This document shows, piece after piece, positions 2 to 49,395 of a DNA stretch of 64,000 nucleotides. Below the pieces are notes generated by a model. It did no database searches and had not been told where the DNA came from. It saw only the letters and a program-made list of their open reading frames with translations. Position 1 is the stretch's first letter, and each line of letters starts with the position of its first letter. The DNA lies in the NCBI GenBank assembly GCA_963775955.1, contig CAVZKT010000002.1, positions 228,944 through 292,943 of the forward strand. The letters are read 5' to 3'. This DNA comes from Candidatus Moraniibacteriota bacterium. Lineage in GTDB: Bacteria; Patescibacteriota; Minisyncoccia; Moranbacterales; UBA2206. Made by a program: the position numbers and the translations under genes.

Positions 2-902
2 ATGATAAATATAATTGGTAAAACTAAATATGCTTACATTTTTTCAATAACCCTCGACGGTTTTGAGCGTGGTTAGTCTTTTTGTTTGGGGCTTGAAATT
101 CGGCATTGATTTTACCGGCGGGACGCTGGCTGAAATCCAGTTTGCCAATTCAGTTCCGGCCAATCAGGAACTGGAGAATACGCTAAAAAACCTGGATCTA
201 AAAAGTCTTACTTTGCAACCGACCACTAATAATTCCGTGCTTATCCGCTATGCTTCCGAAGACGATAAGATAAATCAGGAAGTTTCACAGAAAATTTCCG
301 AGAGCTATCCCGGAGCCAAAGAATTACGCGCGGATTTCATCAATTCCTCGGTTTCGCAAGAACTGCGCCGGAATTCTCTCTGGGCGATCGTTATTGCGAT
401 TTTAGGAATTATGGCCTATATTGCCTGGGCGTTCCGCAAAGTTTCCCGCCCGGTTGAATCCTGGAAATACGGGCTGGGCGCGGTGATCGCGCTCGTGCAT
501 GATGTCCTGATAACCATCGGCGTTTTTTCAGCGCTTGGGCATTTTATTGGCATTGAAGTGGGCGTGCCGTTTATTGCGGCGCTGCTCACGATTCTCGGGT
601 TTTCCGTGCATGACACGATTGTTGTTTATGACCGGACGCGCGAAAATTTGCTGCGCAGTTCCGCCAAAGAGCAATTTCCGGAAATTGTCAATCGCAGCTT
701 AAATGAAACATTAGTCCGTTCAATCAACACATCGCTCACGGTGCTCCTCACGCTTTTGGCGATTTATATTTTTGGCGGGGAAACTATCCGCGATTTTTCC
801 CTGGCGCTCCTGATCGGCGTATTTTTCGGAACTTATTCCTCGATTTTCATCGCTTCGGCGCTTTTAGTGACCAGCTACAAGTTTCAACTTGCTAAGAAAT
901 AA
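2..902 (+). CDS. secF: Protein-export membrane protein SecF, frame interrupted near 58-64
   Basis: Track ORF 63-902 shows GIDFTGGT near the N-terminus, multiple TM segments and a C-terminal FGTYSSIFIA. ATG at 2 opens another frame (MINIIGKTKYAYIFSITLDGF, stop 74-76) that supplies the missing first TM helix. Removing one base in GGTTTTGAG joins the two. Confidence 0.8.
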
Positions 903-3313: not shown

Positions 3314-3601
3314 ATGGAAATAGTTGGTAGTATTTTAGAATGCTGTACTGGCGGCCTGGTTTTAACCATAGTTGTAATTATAGTGGTTATTGCAGAAAGT
3401 ATTGGGAATGAAAAAAGAAAAACCACGATTTTTAAAGTCCCCCTTGGGTGGTTATGCATTCGCATTGAAGATTTATTAACAACTCTCGCAATCAGTTGGT
3501 TTCGCTGTAAATACCCGTTTTTATTTTTAGAAACAGAAGAAACGAAACCCTTGCAGATTACCCATAAAGGAGGGAATCATGCCAAAAAGTTCAACGCTTA
3601 G
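3314..3601 (+). CDS. Hypothetical small protein with hydrophobic N-terminus
   Basis: ORF preceded by AAGGGAGG, a Shine-Dalgarno-like sequence. No family recognised. Confidence 0.35.
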   Translation: MEIVGSILECCTGGLVLTIVVIIVVIAESIGNEKRKTTIFKVPLGWLCIRIEDLLTTLAISWFRCKYPFLFLETEETKPLQITHKGGNHAKKFNA

Positions 3602-3848
3602 GACGAATGGCGGCGTTTGGGCCCATGCGGTCGATAGGCTAGTGGGCCAATACGGTTTTCGAGGCAGCAGAAAAGAAGCCCGCAAGCTCCTGCGCAAATG
3701 CCGGGAGGAAGCGGATAAAGAAGATCGGGTATTGATATCCAGCAAAAATCTCGGCATAGCATCTGCGGAACTTTTGCGTTGGGGCATTCCCGATTGCAGT
3801 TTGATTGCTATTATCAGCAGAGGCGAAGTTGTTTCAGTTATCAGTTAA
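3579..3848 (+). CDS. Hypothetical basic protein
   Basis: ORF preceded by AAAGGAGGGAATC. Locally higher GC. Followed by a strong terminator. Confidence 0.4.
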   Translation: MPKSSTLRTNGGVWAHAVDRLVGQYGFRGSRKEARKLLRKCREEADKEDRVLISSKNLGIASAELLRWGIPDCSLIAIISRGEVVSVIS

Positions 3849-3890
3849 AGAGAAAGGATGAAAAATATTAACAATTCGTTAATTTTTTAA

Positions 3891-3928
3891 CCCCTGCGGC
3901 CAATTTCGGCGCAGGGGCGTATTTTTTT
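3891..3928 (+). terminator. Rho-independent terminator
   Basis: CCCCTGCG ... CGCAGGGG stem followed by a T-run. Confidence 0.7.
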
Positions 3929-3970
3929 GGCTCCGCTTTTTTTATTTCCCGATTCTGCTATAATAAAAAA

Positions 3971-4981
3971 ATGCAAAATAAAAAAATAATTCAGTATATA
4001 TTAATCGCCATATCAATCACGATTTCATTTTTCGCCTTTTGGTCGGTTGAGCGGGCGGTGCGCGTTCCGGAAGCCAGTAATTGGCTGGCGCCGATAGTTT
4101 GGTTTTCTCTGCTTTTTATAATTCTTTGTCTTAATATCGCGCTGGTTAAGGATAAAAGAATCATATATCCGGCCATTTTTGCTTCTCTGCTTGCCTGTCT
4201 TGTTTTTTCTCCCAGCTTCTGGCAGTTTTTAGCCGTATTATTCGGATTTCTTTTGCTTCTGGCGGCGCGCGCGCGGATCCAGGGCGATATTGATTATGGC
4301 AAAAAAATCAAACTATGGAGATCTTTGCGTTTTGGAAAATCATATATATATCTGGCGCTGGCGCTGGTCATTTCCGGCCAGTATTATTTTTTGGTCAAAG
4401 ACGCTCCGGCGCAAAATTTCATTCCGGATTTCAAAGTTGACGGCCTGACGGAATATCTTACGCCCAAAATTCTTTCCGCTGTCAGCCCGGATCTTGCGTC
4501 TTCAGTCGGCGGCGAGACGACCATAGATCAATTTATCATCCAAATGCAAAAAAGCCAGTTGGATCAAGCAGGATATAGCCCGGAGAAACTTGCTAAATTG
4601 CCACCCGATCAGCGCGTAGCTATCCAAAAACAAATTGATGCGGAAATAGAAAAAAATCAGGATGCCCTCCTGGAAGAAGGAAGAAAAAAATTCACAGATC
4701 TCGTTGGCCGGCCGGTAAACGGATCAGAAAAAGTTTCCGCTATTTTTTCGGAAATAATAAACAGCAAGGTGAATGACTATTTAAAACCCGGAAATATTAA
4801 CATAGGTTCACTTCCAGTGGCGCCCATCGTTGCGTTCATATTGTTTTTAACGGTTTGGTCGCTGGGATCGTTTTTGGGAATAATTCTCGTACCAATGGCG
4901 GCGGGAATATTTTGGATTCTTGTTCAAGCGAAACTAGTTACGATATCAAAAATATCGGCGGAAGTGGAAGTAATTGAGTAG
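3971..4981 (+). CDS. Polytopic membrane protein, unknown function
   Basis: 336-aa ORF with several hydrophobic helices at both ends and a soluble central region. Confidence 0.6.
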   Translation: MQNKKIIQYILIAISITISFFAFWSVERAVRVPEASNWLAPIVWFSLLFIILCLNIALVKDKRIIYPAIFASLLACLVFSPSFWQFLAVLFGFLLLLAARARIQGDIDYGKKIKLWRSLRFGKSYIYLALALVISGQYYFLVKDAPAQNFIPDFKVDGLTEYLTPKILSAVSPDLASSVGGETTIDQFIIQMQKSQLDQAGYSPEKLAKLPPDQRVAIQKQIDAEIEKNQDALLEEGRKKFTDLVGRPVNGSEKVSAIFSEIINSKVNDYLKPGNINIGSLPVAPIVAFILFLTVWSLGSFLGIILVPMAAGIFWILVQAKLVTISKISAEVEVIE

Positions 4982-5118: not shown

Positions 5119-6240
5119 ATGGCAAATAACTACTACGATATTTTAGGTGTTTCCAAAAGCGCTTCTGACGACGAAATCAAGAAAGCCTACCGGAAGCTGG
5201 CGCACAAATACCATCCGGACAAAGCCGGTGGAGATGAAAAGAAGTTCAAGGAAATAAATGGGGCGTATCAAGTGCTTTCCGACAAGGCAAAACGCCGGCA
5301 ATATGATCAGTTCGGGCAAACCTTTGAACAAAGCGGAGCCGGACAAGGATTTGGAGGCTATTCATCTGGTGGCTTTGAAGGTTTTGACTTCGGAGATATT
5401 TTCGGCCAGGCCAGGCAGGGCGGCGCGTCTAATTTCGAGTTCGGCGGAGATTTTTCCGATATTTTTTCCGATATTTTTGGCGGCGGCCGGGGGCGCAGCA
5501 GGCGGAAAGCGAAGGCCGGCCGGGATATTCAGGTGGATGCCGAGATAAGTTTTGAAGAAATGGTGAGAGGCGCGGCGCGGAATATCAGACTATACAAAAC
5601 TGTGAAATGCTCAGTTTGCAAAGGCACGGGAGGAGAACCGGGAGTTCGGGAAGAGACTTGTCCGGTTTGTCATGGATCAGGGCAGGTGCAAAAAAACACC
5701 CGCAGTTTTTTTGGCAGTTTCTCTCAAGTTTTAACCTGTCCGGAATGCGCGGGCTCAGGCAAGGTATATTTAAAAAAATGCAAGAAATGCGGAGGCGACG
5801 GCCGAATTAAAGAAGAGCAGGATATAAAAATTGAAATTCCGGCTGGGATTTCCGACGGACAGACGATTTCGCTTGAAGGACAGGGCGAGGCCGGCGAAAC
5901 CGGCGCGCCTAGCGGAGATCTTTTCGCCAATGTCCATGTCAAACCGCATGCGAAATTCAAGCGGGAAGGAAATAATATTACTTCATCAGAATTTATAAAT
6001 TTTTCTCAAGCTGTTTTGGGAGACAAAATTTTTGTAGAAACTATTGATGGCCGGATTAAGATGAAAATTCCTTCCGGAACGCAATCGGGGGAAATTTTCC
6101 GCATTAAAGGCGAAGGTGTTCCCTTTTTGCAAAAAGGCGGGCGCGGGGACCATCTGGTAAAAATAATTGTGAAGATCCCCAAAAATATTTCACGCGAGCA
6201 GAGAGATTTGGTGGAAAAATTGAGGGGTGAGAATGTTTGA
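5119..6240 (+). CDS. dnaJ: Chaperone DnaJ
   Basis: J-domain with HPD, a G/F-rich linker, four CxxCxGxG zinc-finger repeats and a C-terminal substrate-binding domain. Confidence 0.95.
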
Positions 6241-6389
6241 TTTTTTGTTATGCTGATTTTGTGGTATAATATTTTTATGAACCCGGTAGTGAAATTTTGA
6301 CTAAAAATATTTTTTAAAAATATTCCAGGCCGCCGGGACATAAAAAGCTTAAAGCATAATACAAATTTTGATCTTTCTATTTTTTAGAA

Positions 6390-6911
6390 ATGTCAAAATT
6401 CTACTACCGGGTGAACCCCATCACAATCTTATCCAATCTGGGCGTGCCGACTAATCTGACGCAGGACATAATGCTCTTGCTTTTTGCGGCGCTGGCCAGC
6501 TTTGTTTATGGCACGCTGATCGGCCGCTGGCGCCTGATGACGGTGCTCATAAACATTTACGTGGCTTTCGCGGTTGTTGCGGTTATTCCGGCAGATTTAA
6601 TTTCAGATTATAACACGGAACTGCTGATATTTTTTATTCTGCTGATTGGCATGACGCTTTTGAATAAAAGATTTTTTGACATTTCTTTTTCCGGTTCAGG
6701 CACAAATTATATGATGCGCGTGTTCGCCATGAGCTTTTTGGAAATTGCTTTGGTTTTGAGCATCGTTTTTTCGCTGGTGCCGAAGAAAGTGGCGCTGGGG
6801 TATATTTCCGCCAATGCCTACGGTTATCTCGTTGCCGGCTATGCCCCGCTGATCTGGATGGCGCTGCCACTGGTTTATATGTTTTTTATGTATCGGAAGA
6901 TGCGCCGGTAA
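6390..6911 (+). CDS. Small integral membrane protein, unknown function
   Basis: 173-aa ORF dominated by hydrophobic helices. The antisense ORF is a shadow. Confidence 0.55.
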   Translation: MSKFYYRVNPITILSNLGVPTNLTQDIMLLLFAALASFVYGTLIGRWRLMTVLINIYVAFAVVAVIPADLISDYNTELLIFFILLIGMTLLNKRFFDISFSGSGTNYMMRVFAMSFLEIALVLSIVFSLVPKKVALGYISANAYGYLVAGYAPLIWMALPLVYMFFMYRKMRR

Positions 6912-6960
6912 TTATTGACTATTTTTTTACGCATGTTACAATCCGTAATGTTATTTTAAT

Positions 6961-7037
6961 GCGCTCATAGCTCAGCCTGGTAGAGCAGTTGCCTTTTAAG
7001 CAAACGGTCGCAGGTTCGAATCCTGCTGAGCGCACCA
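6961..7037 (+). tRNA. tRNA-Lys (anticodon UUU), CCA encoded
   Basis: Hand-folded cloverleaf: acceptor GCGCTCA/TGAGCGC, D arm GCTC/GAGC, anticodon loop CTTTTAA, T arm GCAGG-TTCGAAT-CCTGC, then ACCA. Confidence 0.9.
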
Positions 7038-7095
7038 ACGAAAATCCTGCTATTGGGATTTTTTGTTTTTGTCTTTTTGTGCTACAATTTATACA

Positions 7096-25555: not shown

Positions 25556-26127
25556 ATTCCGAAGCTCGCAAGAGCGAAGGATGGCTAGTACAGAAATGTA
25601 CAAAAACCCTCCTACGTCCGCCTCGGCGGACTTCGGAAGGGTAAAGAGTCTATTCAAACAAAGAATTTATTTTCTTTAAATAAGGTTTATTGATCCGTCT
25701 TCTCCGCCTTCGGCGGATTCGGCGGGATCTAATAAATCTATCGAAAAAAATTATATTTTTTTCGAGATTTATTGAGAGTTTGATCCTAGCTCAGGATGAA
25801 CGCTGGCGGCGTGGATAAGGCATGCAAGTCGAGAGGGTTTAGACCCTCGGCAAACGGGTTAGTAATACATAGGAACTTCCCTGAAGTCGTGAATAATCCG
25901 GAGAAATCCGGAATAATACACGATATGCTCTACGGAGTAAAGATTTATCGCTTCAGGAGGGCCTGTGTCCTATCAGCTTGTTGGTAGTGTAAAGGACTAC
26001 CAAGGCTATGACGGGTAGGGGGTGTGAGAGCACGGCCCCCAACATTGGGACTGAGACACTGCCCAAACTCCTACGGGAGGCTGCAGTCGAGAATATTCGT
26101 CAATGGGCGAAAGCCTGATGGAGCGAC

Positions 26128-26166
<39 letters not shown>

Positions 26167-26858
26167 TTTCTGAGGGAAGAATTTCGTGACGGTACCGCAG
26201 GAATAAGAGGTTACTAACTCTGTGCCAGCAGTAGCGGTAATACAGAGACCTCAAGCGTTATCCGGATTTATTGGGCGTAAAGAGCATGTAGGCGGATATA
26301 TTAGTCAGATGTCAAATCTTCGAGCTCAACTCGAAAACTGCATTTGAAACGGTATGTCTAGAGAGAGTGAGAGATCGATGGAACATATGGTGTAGCAGTG
26401 AAATGCGTTGATATCATATGGAACACCAAAGGCGAAGGCATTCGATTGGCACTCTTCTGACGCTGAGATGCGAAAGCGTGGGTAGCGAATGGGATTAGAT
26501 ACCCCAGTAGTCCACGCCGTAAACGATGCATACTAGGTATTAGGAGAATCGACCCTCCTAGTGTCGTAGCTAACGCGTTAAGTATGCCGCCTGGGAAGTA
26601 CGAGCGCAAGCTTAAAACTCAAAGGAATAGACGGGGATCCGCACAAGTGGTGGAGCATGTGGTTTAATTCGACGGTAAGCGAGAAACCTCACCAGGGCTT
26701 GAAACTTAGCTGCATTGTGCAGAAATGCACAAGCCTTCGAGGGTGCTAAGCAGGCGCTGCACGGTTGTCGTCAGCTCGTGTCGTAAGATGTTCTGTTAAG
26801 TCAGGAAACGAGCGCAACCCCTATCGTGTGTTACATTGTGTCACACGAGACTGCCCAG

Positions 26859-27048
26859 AACTTTGCACAAGAGTGCAAAGTAAATTCCAAATTACAAATC
26901 ACAAATCCCAAACAAATTCAAAATTCTAAAATACAAATTTCAAAACTTTTAAAAAATTGTTTTGGACATTTGAATTTTGGTCATTGGTGCTTGTTTGGAA
27001 TTTGGTGCTTAGGATTTGGTGCTTACTTTGTCACTCGTGGACAAAGTT
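26859..27048 (+). other. 190-nt AT-rich expansion replacing the helix-40 loop of the 16S
   Basis: Sits between ACTGCCCAG and CTGGGAGGAAGGTGGGG, where E. coli has CCAGTGATAAACTGG. It begins and ends with similar hairpins (ACTTTGCAC/GTGCAAAGT and CTTTGTC/GACAAAG). The centre folds as a long A/T helix. Confidence 0.8.
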
Positions 27049-27279
27049 CTGGGAGGAAGGTGGGGATGACGTCAAATCAGCGTGGCCCTTTGACGCCCTG
27101 GGCAACACACGTGCTACAATGGTAAGAACAAAGGGTTGCCAAGCCGTAAGGCGGAGCTAATCCCAAAAATCTGATCTCAGTTCGGATTGAGGTCTGCAAC
27201 TCGACCTCATGAAGCCGGAATCACTAGTAATCGTAGATCAGAATGCTACGGTGAATACGTTCTCGGATCTTGTACTCAC

Positions 27280-28151
27280 AATAAAAGCGCTGGGCAGTTG
27301 TAAATTCTAAGGAGTTTAAATCTCCTCTCCCGATTTCGTCATCGGGATGTAGCTGAAAGGTAGTCGTTATCCGCGAGGATAATGGTGAAGGATCTGGAAG
27401 CAAAAAATAGTCCGACAAAATCCGCCAGTTGGCGGAGCGCGCATCGACCTTCGGAAGGGTGGTGAGCGAAGGGAAGACGCAAGAATAAGCGCAGTCGGAA
27501 TGTTTGGAAAAGAGTTTATAATGACCCCAGGAGATCTTATGCCGTTCTGATTATGTGTTATAATATAATCAGGTAATGAAACTTACGCGGCGTAAGAAGT
27601 CAGCTGAATCGTAGTATCCCGAGTTCTCGGGAGAAGGATTCACTCAGTGCATATGGAATTAAATCCAAATTATATCGTTGGTCTGGTTGATGGAGAAGGA
27701 AGTTTTACAGCTTATGTAAAAAATCCGGATTCAACCAAAAAAGTTCAAAGGCGGACAAAAGTTGAGCCAAGGTTTTTTCTGAAACTTATCGAGAAAGATA
27801 AAAAAATTCTTGATGAGCTTAAAAAATTCTTCGGATGCGGCAATGTTTATTTTCAAAAAGATAAGCGCGCCAATCATCAAAATTGTTATCGTTATGAAGT
27901 AGCCAACCGCAGTGATTTGGAAAAAATAATAGTTCCATTTTTCAAAAGGAATTCTTTGCAGTTACGCTCAAAGAAAAGTGACTTTGAAATGTTTTGTAAG
28001 ATTCTCAAGATGGTTCAAAAAAAGGAACATCTGAAAGAATCGGGATTAAGAAAAATATATAATCTCAAGCAAAAGATGCATTAGAGCTCGTCGTGTGCGG
28101 GAAATCCGCAGGCACGATGGGAACATCAATTCGTAGTTTTACGAAAATATT
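27280..28151 (+). mobile_element. 872-nt intervening sequence in the 16S (E. coli ~1397-1400 region) carrying a homing endonuclease gene
   Basis: Interrupts the universal GYACACACCGCCCGT: TTGTACTCAC | insertion | CGCCCGTCACACC. Contains structured GC-rich RNA flanks and the LAGLIDADG ORF. Confidence 0.85.
27653..28084 (+). CDS. LAGLIDADG homing endonuclease (single-motif type)
   Basis: NPNYIVGLVDGEGSF is the LAGLIDADG motif. 143-145 aa, the size of the homodimeric I-CreI-like class. Located inside the rRNA insertion. Confidence 0.85.
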   Translation: MELNPNYIVGLVDGEGSFTAYVKNPDSTKKVQRRTKVEPRFFLKLIEKDKKILDELKKFFGCGNVYFQKDKRANHQNCYRYEVANRSDLEKIIVPFFKRNSLQLRSKKSDFEMFCKILKMVQKKEHLKESGLRKIYNLKQKMH

Positions 28152-41437: not shown

Positions 41438-41647
41438 GCATTATTATAGTAATAAACACTTCGTCAATGGCTGATTTGCTCCCTTGACTTTCGATTTTTT
41501 AAGTGTATAATTAACAAGATTTACGCATATTAGCTATGTGGAAGTCAGATGTTCTTTGACAAAAATCCTGTTTTTGACTTATGGCTAATAATGCTATATA
41601 GTTGAAATATGTTTGAAAACACTATTATGCAAAATAAAGGGGGTAAT

Positions 41648-43517
41648 ATGGAAATGAAGGAAAAAAAACAAGACGAGTTTGAGAAGTACAAGCTGGAGGT
41701 GGCTGAATCCGTAAGCGCGGTTCAGAAAAAAATCAGCGAGGAAAAGGATAGTCGCGAACTTGTTGACTTTGATAGCTATCCATCAGAAAAGCTAACGGCG
41801 GAGGTAGCTGAGGTTGTGAGAGAGTCTATCGGTGTCCAAGATGTTGGAGAAATAGGACTGTCAGTTCCACCAGCTCACATATCCGGCGATTTTGCTTTGG
41901 AGGTTTTTGATTTAGCAAAAAAGCTGGGGGAAAAACCAAATGTGCTGGCAAAGAAAATTGCTGATAGCATAAATGGGCGAGAAATGGAGTTGGTCAAGGA
42001 TGCTTCTGTGGCAGGAGCTTTTGTAAATGTGGAAACACGCAAGGAGACCCTCTACCGAGATATTCTTGCAAAAGTTCTTAAGCTCGGAGAGCGCTATGGC
42101 GAAAGTGATATCAATGCTGGCAAAGTGGCAGTCATTGATTATTCGGCTCCGAACATAGCAAAGCCTATTGGAGTCGGTCACTTAAGATCTACAATCATTG
42201 GGCAAGCTCTTGCTAATCTTTACCATGAAACTGGCTACAGCGTTATCAAGGACAATCATCTTGGTGATTGGGGCACGCAATTTGGATCACTCATTTACGC
42301 CTATAAAGAATGGGGTGATGAGAAGAAAATAGCGGAGAACCCAATTGGAGAGCTTAAGGATCTCTATGTTAAGTTTCATGCATTTTCTAAAGAGCACCCA
42401 GAGGTTAAAGATAGTGCTCGCGAGTTGTTTACGCGACTCGAGAAAAAGGATCCCGAGCTGGTAGCTCTTTGGAAGCGTTTTAGGGATTTAAGTCTCAAAG
42501 ACTTTGATCGTGTCTACAAGCAATTGGGAATCGAATTCGACACTAATATCGGTGAGAGTTATTTCACTGAACAAGCTGACAAACTGGTGGGTGAGTGTAT
42601 GACAAAGGGTTTGTGCAGAAAGGATGAAGCGTCGGAGGCTGTTGTTGTTGACCAAATGGGAGAAATTCCGTCTTTTCTATTAAGAAAGCAGGATGATTCG
42701 AGTCTGTATTTGTCGAGGGATTTAGCCACGCTTCAGTTTAGGGTCAAAGCCTTCAAGCCCGATGCTATTTTGTATGTGGTGGGCAATGAGCAGGATTTAA
42801 ACTTCAAACAACTGTTTGAATTTAGTAAGCGCGCCGAATATCTTCCAGACGGCGTGGAAACGAAACACATCGGATTTGGAATGGTCTTGAGAGACGGCAA
42901 GAAGATGTCTACCAGAAAGGGGACACTCATTGAGTTAGAAGACCTGATTGCGCAGTCTGTAGAAAAATCAAAGGAGATATTGCTCCAAAAAAATCCAGAC
43001 GCTGATCCGCAAGAATTGGAAAAAGTGGCTGAGATTGTTGGTGTCGGAGCAATCATTTACAATGATTTGCGCCAGTCGAGAGTAAAGAATATCTCTTTCG
43101 ATTGGGACAGGATGCTTGATTTGGAAGGTGGAAGCGCGGTTTATTCTCCAGTACTCATATGTTCGAATCAATTCAATTCTCAGAAAGCTAACTGAGACTT
43201 ATGGCGAAATTGATTTGAGCACTTTGGAGAAAGGAGAGATTTCTTTCACGAGCAAGAGTGAATTTGATCTTGCGAAGAAGTTAATGATGTTTCCTGCAAT
43301 CGTTGTTAAGTCGCAGGAAACTGATTCTCCTCATCATCTCTGTGTGTATTTGGAGGAATTGGCTCAGTTTTTCAACAGCTTCTACAATGAAGTATCGCTT
43401 CTCAGGACCAAAGATGCAAAGCTTCGTAATTCAAGAGTGGCTTTAAGCAAAGGTGTGGCCTTGGTGATCAAAAAAGGCCTATCTTTACTGAGTATCAAGG
43501 TTCCGGAGAAGATGTAG
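41648..43517 (+). CDS. argS: Arginine--tRNA ligase, frame broken near 43141-43146
   Basis: Class I: SAPNIAKPIGVGHLRSTIIG (HIGH variant) and KMSTRKG (KMSKS). The C-terminal DALR domain continues in track ORF 43116-43517. Removing one T in GTTTATTCTCC gives GGSAVYLQYSYVRINSIL. ATG 41648 follows AAAGGGGG. Confidence 0.85.
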
Positions 43518-43562: not shown

Positions 43563-43636
43563 ATCCAAATTTAATTTTTTTCCAACTGCCAAAAAGGCGG
43601 TTTTTTGTTTTCTCAAATTTGTGCTATAATAACCTC

Positions 43637-43735
43637 ATGGTCAAGTCGAAACCCAAAAAACTCAAAAACACCTTTTCCTGGATGAATCCAAAGCTGGAAG
43701 TAAAAAAGACTGATAAATATGGGAAGGGAGTTTAA
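43637..43735 (+). pseudogene. Truncated SET-domain gene fragment (32 codons)
   Basis: MVKSKPKKLKNTFSWMNPKLEVKKTDKYGKGV* looks like the N-terminus of small bacterial SET proteins (KLEV.K....G.GVF). Compare the intact SET gene at 49000. Confidence 0.5.
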
Positions 43736-43755: not shown

Positions 43756-43848
43756 ATGGAAAATATTTACGTTTCCCTAGATGAAGCGCGGGAAGAAATA
43801 AAAAAGAGGTGGAATGATGTTGAATTGAGAAAGAGGGTTGAAAAATGA
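43756..43848 (+). pseudogene. Truncated copy of the 48208-48984 gene (30 codons)
   Basis: MENIYVSLDEAREEIKKRWNDVELRKRVEK*. About 85 nt are near-identical at the DNA level to 48218-48300. Confidence 0.7.
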
Positions 43849-43986
43849 AATAAAGGACCTATTACTGTTAACTATACAGGCGCTTGACATTTTTTAGAAA
43901 TCTGCTAGTATACCATGAACACCAAGTCAATATGACTAGTGTCAGGCAAGTAACTTGAAAATAATGTTCTAAAAGGAGGATTTGTT

Positions 43987-45120
43987 ATGAAAAACAGGCT
44001 AATTTCCAAAGAGAGGTTAGCTAAGGCACTAGCCATAAAAGATCTCTCGGATCCAGCGAATGGAGTTCATGCGATTAACTTAGTAGTCAGTAAAATTTTT
44101 GACTATCTAACAAAAAAAGCAGGGTGGCCAAAACCGGAAATAAGAAGAGCGAGTCCTATTTCATCAGTCAAAAATGATTTTGATCGGCTGTATTTCCCAC
44201 CAGATAATCTTACTCGTTTGCCTCGCTACACGCGGTATCTTGATGAAAAAACCATATTGAGGACGCACACAACCGCCATGATACCTAATATACTCATAGA
44301 GATACGAGAAAAGGGCTTGATGGATTTCTCTGTTCTCTGTCCTGGCATATGTTATCGCAGGGATGTGGTTGACAGTAGGCATACGGGAGAAGCCTCATCA
44401 AATGGATATTTGGAGGATTAAAAAAGGCACACCAAGGCTTGAACGCAAAGCCCTCATTGATTTGATTGAGTTGGTGCTGGAAGCTGTAATTCCAGGAGCA
44501 AAATATAGGGCCAACGAGGTAAATCATCCCTACACAATAAATGGACTTGAGGTTGAGGTCCTTGTGAAGGGATATTGGCTTGAATTGCTGGAATGTGGCG
44601 AAGCGCACCCAAGGCTCCTCTCTGAGGCTGGACTTGATCCGAAAGAATACTCCGGACTGGCGATGGGTGTTGGACTTGACCGATCGGCCATGTTGTTGAA
44701 GGACATTGAGGACATAAGAATACTGCGTTCGGAAGATCCTCGTATCAAGCAACAGATGACCAATCTTAGTCATTATAAGGCAGTTTCAAAATATCCGCCC
44801 GTACGCCAAGATCTCTCCGTTTCAGTTTTGCAAGAAACAAATGAGGAAGATGTATGCGAAATAATCAAAGATGCTCTTGGTGACAATTCAGATGTTGTTG
44901 AGGAAATTACCATAATGTCGGAACAAATTACGACCGTCTTCCTGCTAAAGCAATTGAAAGGTTGGGCATAAGACCAGGACAAAAAAACATGCTGATAAGA
45001 GTTATTTTAAGATCGCATGAAAGATCCCTCACTCATAAGGAGGCCAATGAAATGAGGGACAATATTTATAGAACAATTAACCAGAGCGGTACCGAAGGTT
45101 ATCTTGCTGGCATTAAATAA
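43987..45120 (+). CDS. Single-chain PheS-like class IIc aaRS paralogue with C-terminal FDX-ACB-like domain, two frame breaks
   Basis: ILRTHTTAMIP, motif 2-like YRRDVVDSRHTGEPHQMDIW (after repair) and motif 3-like GLAMGVGLDRSAML. The C-terminus KYPPVRQDLSVSV...YDRLPAKAIERLGIRPGQKNMLIRVILRSHERSLTHKEANEMRDNIY resembles the ferredoxin-fold anticodon-binding domain. Breaks lie near 44388-44393 and 44924-44928. Strong RBS AAAGGAGG. Confidence 0.7.
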
Positions 45121-45139: not shown

Positions 45140-45175
45140 AAGCCATTCTTTCAAAGGAATGGCTTATTTTTTTTC
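45140..45175 (+). terminator. Rho-independent terminator
   Basis: AAGCCATTC ... GAATGGCTT followed by a long T-run. Confidence 0.75.
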
Positions 45176-45191
45176 TACAAAAATGAACACA

Positions 45192-45220
45192 TTGACATAA
45201 CCACCAATTTAGCATAGTAT
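45192..45220 (+). promoter_or_regulatory. Promoter (TTGACA-17-TAGTAT) for the peptide/rSAM operon
   Basis: Perfect -35 with a 17-nt spacer, 35 nt upstream of the small ORF. Confidence 0.55.
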
Positions 45221-45254
45221 CAATACATAATAAACTAATTATAAAATTAACAAA

Positions 45255-45371
45255 ATGGAAGAAAAAACAACCCTGAAAACCGTCCAAGAGGAATGGATGG
45301 GAGGCACAAAAGAAAATGGTCAGGAGCAACAAGAAGTTGTGGTCAGAGAATGTTCTTGCTCATTTGATTAG
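45255..45371 (+). CDS. Candidate RiPP precursor peptide (38 aa, not in ORF track)
   Basis: Hand translation: MEEKTTLKTVQEEWMGGTKENGQEQQEVVVRECSCSFD*. Lies between a promoter and a radical SAM/SPASM gene. No obvious RBS. Confidence 0.45.
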   Translation: MEEKTTLKTVQEEWMGGTKENGQEQQEVVVRECSCSFD

Positions 45372-45439
45372 CCCCAAAAAACCTAAATATAAGATAAAAA
45401 AGAAATTTTGTAATCGAAACTGTTTTTGTGTTTGAAAAA

Positions 45440-46498
45440 ATGAAAACATCACCAAAAAAATCTGAATTGCACTATGCTTTATGGGAGGTTACTCAAAAAT
45501 GCAATTTGCGATGTATACATTGTAGGGCGGATGCCTCTCCCGAAAAAGAAGAAGGGAAATTAATAGAGGGTAGGGATGCTTTCAGATTAATAGACCAGCT
45601 TAGCGAAATGGGTTGTCCAACCCTAGCGATTACCGGAGGAGAGCCGCTGCTAAGAAAGGATTTGGTTGAAATTGTAAGATATGCAACTTCGAAGAATATA
45701 CGAACAAGAATACAAAGCAATGCCCAACTTTTAACCGATGATATCGCAAGCCGACTAAAGGAGGCCGGGCTTTATTCCTACGGAGTTGGGATGGATGGGT
45801 CAACGCCTGAAATAAATGACAAAATAAGAAATAAAAGCGGAGCTTTTGACAAAGCTATTTCTGCCATCAAATTATTAAAATCAAAGGGGCTTAAAGTGCA
45901 TATTGAATTTACACTTACAAGGTTTAATTTGCATGATTTGCATAATACTCTTAATCTGCTGGAAAAATTGGGAGTCGATACCTTTTTAGCTAGAGCTGCC
46001 ATATTTACTGGTAGAGCCATGGCTAATAATGAAGCATTTAGATTATCGAAACTTGAATATAGAAAATTTCTAGAAGAGATTAGCAGGGAAAGACGGGAAA
46101 GAAAAATTACTCTAAACTGCCAGGATCCACTATATCACCTAGTTGATGACTCTATTACAAAAAAACTTAAAAATTATGGTGATATTTATTCTGGATGCGT
46201 ACTAAGCGGATGTACTGCAGGACTCAATATGGTTCATATTCATTCAAATGGAAATATTGGCATATGTACTTTTCTGCAGAACATTATTTTGGGAAATATA
46301 TTCGAAAAGCCTCTTCAAAAAATTTGGAACGAAAGACTGGATGTCCCGGAAGTAAGAAGATTGGTTAAAAGAGAGTACGAAGGAAAATGCAAATCTTGTT
46401 CTGACAGATACATCTGTGGTGGATGCAGGGCTAGATCTCTTTGTATCTCAAATAATTTATTTGGGCATGATCCTTACTGCTGGAAAAATGAAAAATAA
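45440..46498 (+). CDS. Radical SAM enzyme with C-terminal SPASM-type auxiliary cluster domain
   Basis: CNLRCIHC (CxxxCxxC), AITGGEPLL, and C-terminal Cys clusters SGCTAG...GICTF and CKSCSDRYICGGCRARS. The alternative start is GTG 45428. Confidence 0.8.
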   Translation: MKTSPKKSELHYALWEVTQKCNLRCIHCRADASPEKEEGKLIEGRDAFRLIDQLSEMGCPTLAITGGEPLLRKDLVEIVRYATSKNIRTRIQSNAQLLTDDIASRLKEAGLYSYGVGMDGSTPEINDKIRNKSGAFDKAISAIKLLKSKGLKVHIEFTLTRFNLHDLHNTLNLLEKLGVDTFLARAAIFTGRAMANNEAFRLSKLEYRKFLEEISRERRERKITLNCQDPLYHLVDDSITKKLKNYGDIYSGCVLSGCTAGLNMVHIHSNGNIGICTFLQNIILGNIFEKPLQKIWNERLDVPEVRRLVKREYEGKCKSCSDRYICGGCRARSLCISNNLFGHDPYCWKNEK

Positions 46499-46946
46499 TC
46501 TTTCTTTAAATAAAGACATTTCCATAAGAAAGTGTCAAAAAGACGACCATGCTTTTATCCATGATCTTTCCAAAAAAAACATGGAGAAATATGTAAGAAA
46601 GTATTGGGGTTCGTGGAATAGCAAAAAGTTTAAAGAAAAATTTAATATAAATAACATATCTATTGTTCAATTTGAGGGTAATTCAGTCGGTTTTTTTGAT
46701 TTGGAATTTAAAAAAAATTATTTATATTTGCACAATATCCAACTGGATAAATCAATTCAGGGTAAAGGAGTGGGAAGCTATTTGATGAAAATAATAGAGG
46801 AGAACTCAAAAAATAATAAATTTAATAAAATTAGGCTAGAGGTTTTTAAAGATAGCCCTGCAAAAAATTTTTATCTAAGTTTACATTACAAAATTACTGA
46901 AGATAACGGCACTTCAGTTACGATGGAAAAACAAATTTATACTTAA
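46488..46946 (+). CDS. GNAT family N-acetyltransferase
   Basis: IQGKGVGSYLMKIIE (QxxGxG) and NFYLSLHY. ATG 46488 overlaps the rSAM stop by 11 nt. Confidence 0.7.
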   Translation: MKNNLSLNKDISIRKCQKDDHAFIHDLSKKNMEKYVRKYWGSWNSKKFKEKFNINNISIVQFEGNSVGFFDLEFKKNYLYLHNIQLDKSIQGKGVGSYLMKIIEENSKNNKFNKIRLEVFKDSPAKNFYLSLHYKITEDNGTSVTMEKQIYT

Positions 46947-47001
46947 ATAAAAGACGCTTTGTTTTAACCAGAGCGCCTTTAATTAACATTCTCTTATTTG
47001 T

Positions 47002-48021
47002 TCAGAATGAAAAAAGTTTTTTGGCCGTGTTATAGAAAACATTTTCCATTACTGTATATCTTTTCTTCTGAAACAAGTCTTTTACAGCTCCCACTAAAGC
47101 TTTCATGGCTTGCCAATGTAGATGAATGCATCCTTTTGCCAGGCTGCCATACTTTTTGTGTTCATCTGGATCAACCCAGTGATATAGGTACTCCGTTATT
47201 AGCCTTGTTCCCAGATGGGGGTTTGTGTACAGCCGCGCCCGTATCAGATTGCATGGCTCATCTGATCCAAAAACGATTCTGGCTGGATCAAAAAATCTTA
47301 AAGCTGCCACCACGACATTATAATCAGTGGCTAGAGAAGTATCCATATAAACCTGCTCATGTCGAGATAATTCCGCGTAAATCTTTTCCAGTAAACTAGA
47401 GTGTCCAGTTGGAGAACCTAAATGGGCAAAAATAACTTTTAGCTTGGGAAAATCTTTGAGCATTTTCCAAAAATCACCTCCCATATCTATTGGTTTGGGT
47501 GGATGAAAAATAATTGGAATCCCCAGTATCTGGGCATGTTCAAGAATTTCTGGCTTGAAAAAGTCGTAGATCTTTTCTGCCGGTGGGACAGTGCTGAAGT
47601 TGTACATTTTAAGAGCGACAACACGTTCATCGGTTAGTATGTCTGTGGTATAAATAATATCATCTCCTATGCCACAAACAGCCACTTTATCCAAACAACT
47701 ACTATTTTCAAGTAAATACCTATTTGCTTTCCGGAAATCAACTCCCTGGATGGGAATCGAGAACCTTAATGCGGTTATCTCATGTCCAGGATATAAATAT
47801 CCTTGCAGATTTCTAGATTGTTCAAGACTAAACTCTGAAAATGTTGAAGCCGGATGATTCAAGATAGCATCCTTGAAGTCGGCATGCTCTGAAAGAAAAC
47901 AGTGAGCATGACAATCGATAATTTTCTCTGGCAATAATTTATGGATCTCCATTAGCTTTTTTTCCTTCTCAGTAAAAGCCAATGCATACTGCAGGCAGTT
48001 GCAATTGTTTATAGTTCTCAT
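47002..48021 (-). CDS. Amidohydrolase-2 (TIM-barrel metal-dependent hydrolase) family protein
   Basis: IIDCHAHCF near the N-terminus, FAHLG, and DEP near the C-terminus. Convergent with the GNAT gene. Confidence 0.55.
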   Translation of the reverse strand: MRTINNCNCLQYALAFTEKEKKLMEIHKLLPEKIIDCHAHCFLSEHADFKDAILNHPASTFSEFSLEQSRNLQGYLYPGHEITALRFSIPIQGVDFRKANRYLLENSSCLDKVAVCGIGDDIIYTTDILTDERVVALKMYNFSTVPPAEKIYDFFKPEILEHAQILGIPIIFHPPKPIDMGGDFWKMLKDFPKLKVIFAHLGSPTGHSSLLEKIYAELSRHEQVYMDTSLATDYNVVVAALRFFDPARIVFGSDEPCNLIRARLYTNPHLGTRLITEYLYHWVDPDEHKKYGSLAKGCIHLHWQAMKALVGAVKDLFQKKRYTVMENVFYNTAKKLFSF

Positions 48022-48207
48022 TTTATCAGTACCTCCAAAAGATAGGTGCTACAAATGCGATAATCATCCAGTTTCGTGTTAACATCCGGCACCTCCTTAT
48101 TTTTAAGTTTTTAAAAAACTGCTTCATTAACGATCTCCAACCCTCGATATATTAGTGTACATCTAATTCCGCTTTTGTCAAATGTTTTTTTGTGCTATAA
48201 TAATTTC

Positions 48208-48984
48208 ATGGAAAAGGACAATATTTATGTTTCGCTTGATGAAGCGCGGGAAGAAATAAAAAAAAGGTGGAATGATGTTGAATTGAGAAAGAAGGTTGAA
48301 GCGGAATTGGGAAACAAGTTCATGCCGAGTTTTAAAAATGAACCAAGGGGTGTGACTTTTCGGCAGCTTTGTTCGCCAGACAATGGATTTACTTTTTTTT
48401 ACCAATGTGTAAAATATATTGGGTTAGAACCGCTGATTATGGAATATCATGATGATATATTCACGCACCTCAATGAAGATAAAAAGGGATTGGGTCGGTT
48501 GCGTGTAATACTAGAAGATGGTACAGCGGCTATGGTTGATATTATAGACTTTCATGCAAATGAAAAAAAGAAATTAAGTGGGTGTGTCCTGAAAACTGGT
48601 GAAAAATTAATCAATTTTCATCACGATCTTATTAAAATGCTAAAATATCCTGTTGATTCATTAGAAAATTCAAAATGGTTTAAAGAGATTGGCAAAGCAT
48701 CAGATTATTACTACTATTTGTTACTCCATTTTATTGCCCATGGAGTGTTATGTGAACTTTTTTTTGATGTTGATGAGAGTAATATTGATTTTGCTAACAA
48801 TATCATACTTCCATCAATTGAAAAAATTTATAATAAATTTGGGCTTAAGCCATTAATTATAAGGCAATATCCGCAAAATCAAAGCGAAGCAGAGGATTTT
48901 TATTGGTGGTGTTATCCTCCCAATATAAATAAATTTATTATTAATTTTGCAAAAAATAATAAAATAGATTTTAAAAAAATTTAA
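48208..48984 (+). CDS. Conserved hypothetical protein, paralogue of 34766-35554; apparently leaderless
   Basis: MEKDNIYVSLDEAREEIKKRWNDVELRKKVEAELG. The ATG lies 6 nt after the TGTGCTATAAT -10 element. Confidence 0.6.
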   Translation: MEKDNIYVSLDEAREEIKKRWNDVELRKKVEAELGNKFMPSFKNEPRGVTFRQLCSPDNGFTFFYQCVKYIGLEPLIMEYHDDIFTHLNEDKKGLGRLRVILEDGTAAMVDIIDFHANEKKKLSGCVLKTGEKLINFHHDLIKMLKYPVDSLENSKWFKEIGKASDYYYYLLLHFIAHGVLCELFFDVDESNIDFANNIILPSIEKIYNKFGLKPLIIRQYPQNQSEAEDFYWWCYPPNINKFIINFAKNNKIDFKKI

Positions 48985-48999
48985 ACCTAGTTTAATAGT

Positions 49000-49395
49000 A
49001 TGTTGTTGGTAGAAACAAAATTATACAATAGTAGCTCACATGGAATTGGTTGTTTTGCTAATGAATTTATTAAAAAAGGAACAAAGATTTGGGAGTTTAA
49101 TCCCGAAATTGATTTAAGGTATACCGAAAAAGATCTAGAAAGATATCCTGAGACTTATGCCAAAATTGTTCGCTTCTATGGCTTTACAGAGAAGGATGGT
49201 AATCAAAAGTATTATGTTTTTTGCGGAGATCACGCTCGACATATAAACCATTCCGATAAGCCAAATTTATTGCCTGATTATAATAATAATTGTGATTATG
49301 CCGCAAGGGATATTGAAATAGGAGATGAGCTTACGGCAAATTATTATGAGTACTATGATGATCCAGATGAAGGTTTGCACAGAAGTATGGATTAA
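49000..49395 (+). CDS. SET-domain protein (putative lysine methyltransferase)
   Basis: HGIGCFANEFIKKGTKI, INHSDKPN (NHSxxPN) and GDELTANY (ELxxxY). Confidence 0.7.
   Translation: MLLVETKLYNSSSHGIGCFANEFIKKGTKIWEFNPEIDLRYTEKDLERYPETYAKIVRFYGFTEKDGNQKYYVFCGDHARHINHSDKPNLLPDYNNNCDYAARDIEIGDELTANYYEYYDDPDEGLHRSMD

Follow-up and report, generated by a model that had tools for sequence, protein, structure and literature searches.

A conserved peptide and radical SAM/SPASM gene pair in which the penultimate peptide residue matches the neighboring aminoacyl-tRNA synthetase

Introduction

What does a 38-codon open reading frame (ORF) do directly in front of a radical S-adenosylmethionine (rSAM)/SPASM gene, and just downstream of a paralog of phenylalanyl-tRNA synthetase (PheRS), in a bacterium of the candidate phyla radiation (CPR)? 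The locus lies in a stretch of 64,000 nucleotides from Candidatus Moraniibacteriota bacterium (assembly GCA_963775955.1, contig CAVZKT010000002.1, positions 228,944 to 292,943 of the forward strand), which we refer to as the window. A first-pass annotation of its sequence had tentatively read the ORF, the rSAM gene and a following acetyltransferase gene as a locus for a peptide that is ribosomally synthesized and then post-translationally modified (RiPP). We find that the ORF is a conserved peptide gene, and that the residue it encodes at its penultimate position covaries with the adjacent aminoacyl-tRNA synthetase (aaRS) across bacteria and archaea.

Pairs of an rSAM/SPASM enzyme and a short peptide are already a known kind. 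What is new here is a family for which we found neither a curated model nor a paper, for the peptide or for the enzyme, and a covariation between residue and aaRS for which we know of no precedent.

Results

The peptide gene and its conservation

The two genes at the center of the locus are:

45255-45371, plus strand: precursor peptide gene, 38 codons, encoding MEEKTTLKTVQEEWMGGTKENGQEQQEVVVRECSCSFD; candidate leader motif TVQEEWMGGT and core E-C-S-C-S-F-D
45440-46498, plus strand: radical SAM/SPASM gene, 352 aa from the ATG at 45440, with an alternative GTG start at 45428; presumed maturase

The peptide stop codon is followed after 68 nt by the ATG, or after 56 nt by the GTG. Both genes lie where the first-pass annotation had placed them, as do the CNLRCIHC motif of the enzyme, the promoter-like site and terminator upstream, the 11-nt overlap with the GCN5-related N-acetyltransferase (GNAT) gene and the convergent gene downstream.

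We fetched 29 loci around homologs of the rSAM gene, in about 16 lineages (L-numbers denote fetched loci and P-numbers proteins). A short ORF of the same architecture adjoins the rSAM gene in all 29, including the archaeal-type loci, whose rSAMs are 43-49% identical to that of the window, and 31 peptides of the family have already been predicted by gene callers. An exhaustive HMMER search of 1.84 billion representatives returned 28 peptide clusters. Across 10 CPR-type peptide genes, the mean proportion of nonsynonymous differences (pN) is 0.36 against a proportion of synonymous differences (pS) of 0.75, the latter saturated; the reading frame is therefore under purifying selection. This bears out the tentative first-pass call of a gene at this position.

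The terminal motif is rare outside this context: across its six frames, the 64-kb window contains [ED]xxCxx[DN]-stop a single time. As a control, we counted it in 504 kb around distant AhbD-like rSAM genes and found it four times, never upstream of an rSAM gene (a fifth listed match spans a stop codon and was not counted). The patterns derived from the rSAM alignment for a metagenome scan were generic rSAM motifs; the scan returned only AhbD-like relatives at about 30% identity, which served as a negative control. There is no Pfam, NCBIfam or PADLOC model for the peptide.

The lack of a clear ribosome-binding site, which had made the first-pass call tentative, is real and also normal in the window, since a Shine-Dalgarno-like motif precedes only 3 of its 51 long ORFs. 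In lineages that do use Shine-Dalgarno sequences, homologous peptide genes have GGAGG 5-8 nt upstream. We conclude that the 38-codon ORF is a genuine conserved precursor-type peptide gene, paired with an rSAM/SPASM enzyme.

Sequence features of the peptide

Two blocks are kept from CPR bacteria to the archaeal-type loci: an N-terminal T-[VSN]-Q-x-x-[WI]-x-G-x-T, typically TVQxxWxGxT, and a C-terminal core, [IV][IV]-x-x-E-x-x-C-x-X-[D/N]-stop. Counted from the C terminus, the core of the window peptide has E(-7), C(-4), F(-2) and D(-1). The alignment of 29 sequences shows no variation at the T, the Q, E(-7) and C(-4); in the wider peptide set Glu(-7) is nearly invariant, with one Gln (P0187) and one Asp.

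These patterns change two details of the first-pass reading. It had proposed CSCSFD as a possible crosslink site; the second Cys of this motif, C(-4), is the sole invariant Cys of the peptide, and relatives have F, T, N, L, A, Y or I in place of the first. It had also suggested an acidic leader with a GG; we rejected a double-glycine leader site, as only the first G is conserved and the second varies.

A different sort of leader is suggested by two homologs. The rSAMs P0039 and P0042 carry the motif (K/N)TIQxxWL fused at their own N terminus, about 13 residues before the rSAM core, and the stand-alone peptide of their loci, MKEQEQKDVRAQESTEKEGKTQKVVIKEGTCLFD, is without it. The presence of the motif on the enzyme itself and its absence from the separate peptide support its role as an enzyme-binding leader element, and by their sequences P0039 and P0042 look like natural leader-enzyme fusions. 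The AlphaFold2 (AF2) model of P0039 is uninformative on leader docking: its body has a predicted local distance difference test score (pLDDT) of 93, and residues 1-20 fall below 55. For both P0039 (L113, 4047-5135) and P0042, the stand-alone peptide is encoded convergently downstream.

The radical SAM/SPASM enzyme family

The window rSAM, with its CNLRCIHC motif, scores above the Pfam cut-offs for both Radical_SAM (102.7 bits) and SPASM (40.9 bits, cut-off 21.5). Seven SPASM cysteines, C258, C276, C317, C320, C326, C329 and C347, show little or no variation among 39 homologs, which confirms the two C-terminal Cys clusters of SPASM type recognized at first pass. Its core starts at about residue 12 and so leaves no room for an N-terminal RiPP recognition element (RRE) domain.

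A search of 5.8 billion proteins returned about 50 rSAM homologs at 43% identity or more; the next relatives, which are AhbD-like, reach at most 38%. The window rSAM reaches no NCBIfam equivalog cut-off: it scores 230.2 against 500 for AhbD (TIGR04545), 201 against 395 for TIGR04053, 198 against 500 for NirJ2, 139.1 against 265 for MftC (TIGR03962), 131 against 625 for StsB and 112.8 against 381 for PqqE (TIGR02109). The scan thus leaves the enzyme outside the AhbD, PqqE, MftC and anSME-type equivalogs, and there is no curated model at the level of the family. A neighbor-joining tree likewise clusters the family apart from genuine AhbD, with modest support (44%) for the exact bipartition. The closest solved folds to the AF2 model of the homolog P0039 (pLDDT 93) are SkfB, SuiB, PqqE, CteB and anSME, all of them peptide-modifying enzymes, and SkfB is the best solved relative of the rSAM at 22% identity.

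The homologs P0004, P0011 and P0153 have been named "AdoMet-dependent heme synthase" by the Joint Genome Institute (JGI), a pipeline label that is unsupported for this family. The locus L071, a partial match at 43%, was excluded from the family as a GC-rich tandem NirJ/AhbC-type locus.

Residue -2 and the neighboring aminoacyl-tRNA synthetase

The first-pass annotation had remarked that the locus follows an aaRS paralog and considered this an unusual setting. The paralog is there; far from being an odd context, it is the most informative feature of the locus, because the peptide residue X at position -2 covaries with the kind of aaRS next door:

CPR bacteria, about 40 distinct peptides: ending F-[D/N]; neighbor SrmL (PheRS-type), in seven CPR lineages
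L113-115, rSAM 49% identical: ending CLFD; archaeal-type pheS-pheT, with the rSAM as third gene of the operon and an 8-nt overlap with pheT
L094 and L100: ending CLED; GluRS directly upstream, scoring 496 and 456 bits with the archaeal GluRS model
L101 and L106-109: ending CMYD; TyrRS immediately upstream, 366 bits (cut-off 220)

X matches the adjacent aaRS in four of four lineages, which between them involve four aaRS gene families and three amino acids, with no mismatch. Left out of this scoring were L105 (Y) and L110, whose contigs end too soon, and L099 (F), which has no aaRS in view. The L110 peptide ends MVD and would be of a Val type; a 67-aa C-terminal fragment upstream of it matches no family and no solved structure. 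By our own arithmetic, which assumes that all aaRSs are equally likely neighbors, the chance of such agreement is about (1/20)^4, or (1/20)^3 with the Phe cases merged, and this estimate leaves out the improbability of finding any aaRS neighbor at all.

The linkage can be very close: in L106 the TyrRS stop codon is at 4568, the peptide gene follows 4 nt later (4573-4674), and the rSAM gene starts at 4667. The rSAM tree places the Glu/GluRS loci (bootstrap 97) within the Tyr/TyrRS clade (bootstrap 100), and residue and neighbor therefore switched together.

In L106-L109 (1-2883, archaeon ADurb.Bin336-type), a second rSAM/SPASM gene, a YbaK-like tRNA_edit protein and ThrRS are encoded 2-4 kb upstream of the TyrRS-peptide-rSAM operon.

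SrmL, GNAT and hydrolase genes in the CPR cassettes

In CPR loci the peptide-rSAM pair travels with a GNAT, an Amidohydro_2 protein and a protein of about 375 aa with tRNA-synt_2d and FDX-ACB domains. In the window these are:

43987-45120, plus strand: SrmL, a PheS-related ligase gene with a class II catalytic core and an FDX-ACB anticodon-binding domain, located by tblastn with the L003 and L096 SrmL proteins
46488-46946, plus strand: GNAT N-acetyltransferase, 152 aa; its ATG overlaps the rSAM stop by 11 nt and it is translationally coupled to the rSAM
47002-48021, minus strand: Amidohydro_2 (PF04909) metal-dependent hydrolase, convergent in the window and co-directional in relatives

The gene set persists while order and orientation vary among the cassettes, with SrmL upstream, downstream or convergent. 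The first-pass annotation had described the peptide, rSAM and GNAT genes as a unit insulated by the upstream terminator and the convergent gene. Its inclusion of the GNAT was sound, the GNAT being fused to the rSAM in P0008, P0026 and P0027, but the insulation does not hold, as SrmL on one side and the convergent hydrolase gene on the other are conserved members of the cassette. Of the RiPP reading as a whole, the pairing of peptide gene and enzyme stands, and the account of the leader site, of the residues to be crosslinked and of how far the unit extends was wrong or incomplete.

SrmL orthologs flank the peptide-rSAM pair in L001, L003, L091, L096, L102 and L111. On NF051887, "PheS-related mystery ligase SrmL" (cut-off 300), the window protein scores 422 after reconstruction, those of L096 and L091 426 each, L102 448, L111 416, L001 389 and the two L003 copies 399 and 361. 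None reaches the cut-offs for canonical PheRS alpha subunits (121-162 against 258 for pheS_mito, 93-129 against 237 for pheS). The class II catalytic motifs are intact (YRRD...HQMD; GLAxGxGLDR). FPFT lines the phenylalanine pocket in the PheRS structures of T. thermophilus and E. coli; every SrmL copy has HPYT in its place. As far as we could find, the constant partnership of SrmL with a peptide-rSAM pair is undescribed in the literature.

Other PheRS-like genes occur nearby in some of these genomes. Further monomeric, mitochondrial-type PheRS-like proteins are encoded beside the locus on CPR contigs, in L002 (3284-4471, minus strand) and L003 (3460-4680, plus strand). Among such proteins, L003 has a second SrmL copy of 406 aa, and a 395-aa protein from Moranbacteria scores about equally, and below cut-off, on both models, with 239 bits for SrmL and 234 bits for pheS_mito. 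In L111, a low-molecular-weight phosphatase gene (3488-3964) follows SrmL, and a gene divergently upstream of the peptide (3-500, minus strand) has an N terminus that by eye resembles peptidyl-tRNA hydrolase.

The GNAT is nearest to N-alpha-acetyltransferases, namely RimI and NAA40, the latter being its closest solved relatives, and weakly matches the arsinothricin N-acetyltransferase ArsN1. We rejected a Fem or L/F-transferase-like aminoacyl-tRNA transferase: the protein is a 150-aa acetyl-CoA-type GNAT nearest to RimI and NAA40. Homologs of the Amidohydro_2 protein follow the GNAT in L091 and L096, and the window and L096 proteins align over their full length at an E value of 2e-19 and 23% identity. 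Archaeal loci are without GNAT and without hydrolase. The only transporter-type gene beside any family locus is in L099, where a DrrA-like ATP-binding cassette (ABC) transporter ATPase (6101-7063) directly follows the rSAM. PADLOC detected no defense system in the cassette; the rSAM has generic similarity to pVip only, and SrmL, GNAT and hydrolase are without a match.

Genomic setting in the window

The signals and repeats around the cassette are:

43758-43842, plus strand: left copy of an 85-nt direct repeat, duplicating the 5' end of ORF 48175-48984
45140-45175, plus strand: intrinsic-terminator-like hairpin and U tract after SrmL
45192-45220, plus strand: promoter-like TTGACA-17-TAGTAT before the peptide gene, matching at 10 of 12 positions
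46955-46975, plus strand: terminator-like hairpin after the GNAT gene
48216-48300, plus strand: right copy of the 85-nt direct repeat, 93% identical to the left, inside the start of ORF 48175-48984

The terminator after SrmL consists of a hairpin at 45140-45165 (11-bp stem, -14 kcal/mol, z = -4.4) followed by the U tract. The promoter-like site is by itself weak evidence, because this AT-rich region holds about as many such matches as chance predicts (14 against an expected 13.9); a similar TTGACA-16-TAGTAT lies ahead of SrmL at 43884-43911. A search of Rfam around the locus returned no T-box, riboswitch or leader RNA, the gap between peptide and rSAM contains no stable attenuator structure (z 0.17), and a viral contig scan found nothing.

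The direct repeats bracket a 4.4-kb cassette and may be the trace of its insertion or rearrangement as one unit. ORF 48175-48984 (269 aa, no family match) has its promoter region and first ~40 codons duplicated upstream of SrmL, with a further duplicated stretch of the promoter region at 43618-43645 and 48189-48216. Two genes downstream of the cassette lies a 131-aa SET-domain protein (PF00856, 51.5 bits; 49000-49395), and the window also holds a bacterial 16S rRNA gene at 25768-27331.

Discussion

A possible mechanism

We favor, with somewhat less than even confidence, a RiPP-type system that is functionally coupled to an aaRS, its product being directed at the cognate aaRS or working with it. 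More tentatively, these loci could form a programmable family of aaRS-directed modified peptides, in which residue -2 (Phe, Tyr, Glu and possibly Val) sets the aaRS that is engaged and the matching aaRS travels along as partner or immunity.

In order of decreasing support, the steps would be as follows. Very probably, the 38-aa peptide would be translated and its TVQxxWxGxT motif recognized as a leader by the adjacent rSAM/SPASM enzyme, which would then modify the extreme C-terminal core, E-x-x-C-x-X-[D/N]-COOH. The modification likely involves Cys(-4), and by analogy a thioether of the Cys-to-Asp/Glu type is a plausible product: the likeliest reaction would join Cys(-4) to the carbon next to a carboxylate, that of the C-terminal Asp/Asn three residues away or that of Glu(-7). 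PapB forms its bond between the sulfur of Cys and the carbon alpha to a carboxylate, using Asp, Glu and even the C-terminal residue (PMC12373016). A thioether at the C-terminal carboxylate would account for the constant C-terminal position of the core and for the interchangeability of Asp and Asn; Glu(-7), whose ExxC spacing is like a mirror image of the NxxC motif, is an alternative acceptor. Given the sequence relatives of the rSAM, oxidative decarboxylation of the MftC/AhbD type may be an alternative chemistry.

Residue X(-2) would be left displayed in or beside a small ring and would act as the specificity determinant: Phe with the PheRS-type gene, Glu with GluRS and Tyr with TyrRS. From the covariation we infer that X addresses the cognate aaRS, and the product would do so as an inhibitor or antimetabolite-like ligand. 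The CPR additions, SrmL as a resistant or specialized PheRS copy together with the GNAT and the Amidohydro_2 hydrolase, would serve self-protection and/or processing. Such a protective role parallels target-copy resistance and the MccE/MccF functions of microcin C; in other pathways, aaRS and tRNA deacylase genes are self-resistance markers (PMC13149037).

Several points weigh against this proposal. The covariation comes from four lineages and three amino acids. The GluRS, TyrRS and PheRS of the archaeal loci look like housekeeping copies among ribosomal genes, and the logic of a resistant copy would there need the sole enzyme to be insensitive. The type of chemistry is argued from analogy, and by sequence the rSAM stands nearest to decarboxylases of tetrapyrroles rather than to thioether synthases. 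The cassette loci lack a conserved exporter or protease, the ABC ATPase of L099 standing alone, and this absence suits a role inside the cell no less well than secretion of an inhibitor. Lastly, the SrmL of the window reads in three frames, with a +1 shift near 44390 and a -1 shift near 44923, the latter resembling a miscount of an AAA/AAAA homopolymer. The upstream ArgRS gene, which is essential, is also split, into overlapping frames at 41609-43195 and 43116-43517; we therefore put the SrmL frame changes down to the assembly as well, and the disruptions in both genes are likely assembly errors rather than signs of pseudogenes.

Alternative readings

The modified peptide could instead be an intracellular partner of its own aaRS (a regulator, fidelity factor or cofactor-like subunit) and no weapon, with SrmL, GNAT and hydrolase as accessories that act on the peptide or on aminoacyl-tRNA. 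We regard this as unlikely, though several features speak for it: the aaRS-peptide-rSAM operons are tightly coupled in archaeal-type loci (as in L106, and in L113 with its 8-nt overlap of pheT and rSAM), L094 sits amid genes for ribosomal proteins, the anticodon-binding FDX-ACB domain is retained in SrmL, and no conserved exporter or protease accompanies the pair. The patchy distribution of the family, with its about 50 rSAM homologs in 5.8 billion proteins, suits an accessory or conflict function better than a core role in translation, and the ABC ATPase that follows the rSAM in L099 also speaks against a partner role. We also know of no precedent for an rSAM-matured peptide as subunit or regulator of an aaRS.

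More doubtful is that the peptide serves as a scaffold of the pearlin type, from which a non-canonical amino acid is made: the rSAM would modify X, the amidohydrolase would free the modified X or an X-Asp dipeptide, the GNAT would protect the producer by N-acetylating the freed amino acid and the linked aaRS would reject the analog. That X covaries with the aaRS at risk of misactivating an analog of X would follow naturally, and the conserved hydrolase, a GNAT of N-alpha-acetyltransferase type with its weak ArsN1 match and the YbaK-like trans-editing domain near the second rSAM of L106-109 would all find a use; the concept has a precedent (PMC13149037). Yet it is E(-7), C(-4) and the C-terminal D/N that are held invariant, while X varies, a single enzyme family would need to act on Phe, Tyr, Glu and perhaps Val, and archaeal loci manage without GNAT and hydrolase.

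We consider it improbable, and lower again in our ranking, that the product is an ordinary ranthipeptide- or sactipeptide-like RiPP with a role in signaling or as a bacteriocin, its aaRS neighbors reflecting inherited synteny or chance. The small genomes of CPR and DPANN organisms hold a large share of genes for translation, and the CPR loci are interrelated, which reduces their adjacency of F and SrmL to about one event. Against chance, however, speak the four aaRS families (SrmL, archaeal-type PheST, GluRS and TyrRS) that each match residue -2, the switch to Glu and GluRS inside the Tyr/TyrRS clade and the persistence of SrmL with the pair through changes of gene order.

Finally, that the rSAM is AhbD (heme b synthase) or NirJ (heme d1 biosynthesis) beside an irrelevant small ORF, as the best NCBIfam match (AhbD) and the JGI heme-synthase names of homologs might suggest, can be dismissed as very improbable, given 230 bits against a cut-off of 500, the separation of the family from genuine AhbD in the tree, the absence of any other gene for the siroheme or heme pathway (including ahbA/B/C) from every locus with called genes and a conserved peptide under selection that always accompanies the rSAM gene.

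Implications

Were the product of an aaRS-coupled RiPP system indeed to act on the cognate aaRS, the system would offer a natural scaffold, modular and open to retargeting through a single codon, for ligands or inhibitors of aaRSs, and the PheRS paralog SrmL, the "mystery ligase", would gain its first functional context and a reason to exist. The proposal also provides a testable function for a conserved cassette in reduced-genome CPR and DPANN-like organisms, where almost no specialized metabolism has been characterized. Should the fusion of leader motif and enzyme in some members be confirmed, it would provide a natural counterpart to an engineered leader-enzyme fusion.

Comparison with known systems

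Within the literature library searched, there was no description of SrmL, of an association between peptide, rSAM and aaRS or of SPASM enzymes with CPR precursor peptides. Several known systems share parts of the locus. The SrmL family itself (NF051887), of which the window gene and its orthologs are members, bears a name that calls it a mystery and comes without a stated function or partner.

Microcin C (MccA-F) offers a functional analogy only: a ribosomal peptide whose C-terminal Asn/Asp end carries a warhead against one aaRS. Its producers protect themselves with an N-alpha-acetylating GNAT (the RimL-like C-terminal domain of MccE) and the hydrolase MccF, and MccE is a fusion of a biosynthetic and an immunity domain. 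Our loci differ in having an rSAM maturase, a hydrolase of another superfamily and, among the called genes of any locus, no MccB (ThiF-type adenylyltransferase); specificity here also follows residue -2 and not the terminal residue.

Resistant aaRS copies are found in antibiotic clusters, as with the IleRS of mupirocin, the SerRS of albomycin and the ThrRS of borrelidin. To our knowledge, there is no RiPP whose encoded residue switches in step with a linked aaRS. Like such clusters and those with tRNA-deacylase markers (PMC13149037), the loci described here physically combine biosynthetic genes with an additional or special aaRS whose specificity matches the product, but the linked aaRS of the archaeal loci seems to be the housekeeping copy.

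AhbD, NirJ and AhbC are the nearest sequence relatives of the rSAM (230 bits, about 33% identity), of the same length and likewise without an RRE. The window enzyme nevertheless scores below half the AhbD cut-off and belongs to a separate clade, always with a peptide gene and never in a heme-pathway context. In mycofactocin (MftA/MftC) and pyrroloquinoline quinone (PQQ; PqqA/PqqE) biosynthesis, a SPASM rSAM related in sequence and fold acts on the last residues of a short peptide, as is proposed here. The scores for MftC and PqqE are far below their cut-offs, however, the loci have no MftB/D/E/F or PqqB/C/D genes, and the C-terminal motif is ExxCxX[D/N] here and GVY or ExxxY there.

The ranthipeptides (PapA/PapB of freyrasin, CteA/CteB), QhpD/QhpC and NxxcB come nearest. 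They too place an rSAM/SPASM enzyme beside a short Cys peptide, with acceptor-type Asp, Asn or Glu residues 2-3 residues from the Cys, and the fold of our enzyme is similar to CteB. PapB, moreover, can use the carboxylate of the C-terminal residue as a handle (PMC12373016), in likeness to the C-terminal core described here. Unlike ranthipeptide precursors, which have several Cys, each with an acceptor (for example six CxxxD), the peptides of this family have a single invariant Cys; in contrast to ranthipeptide and SCIFF maturases, the enzyme has no N-terminal RRE (PqqD-like), and no such model is among the top matches listed, none of which reaches its cut-off. The core is always at the extreme C terminus, and the known systems are without the link to an aaRS. 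We would place the system among the rSAM/SPASM RiPP-like systems, closest in logic to ranthipeptides, QhpD and NxxcB.

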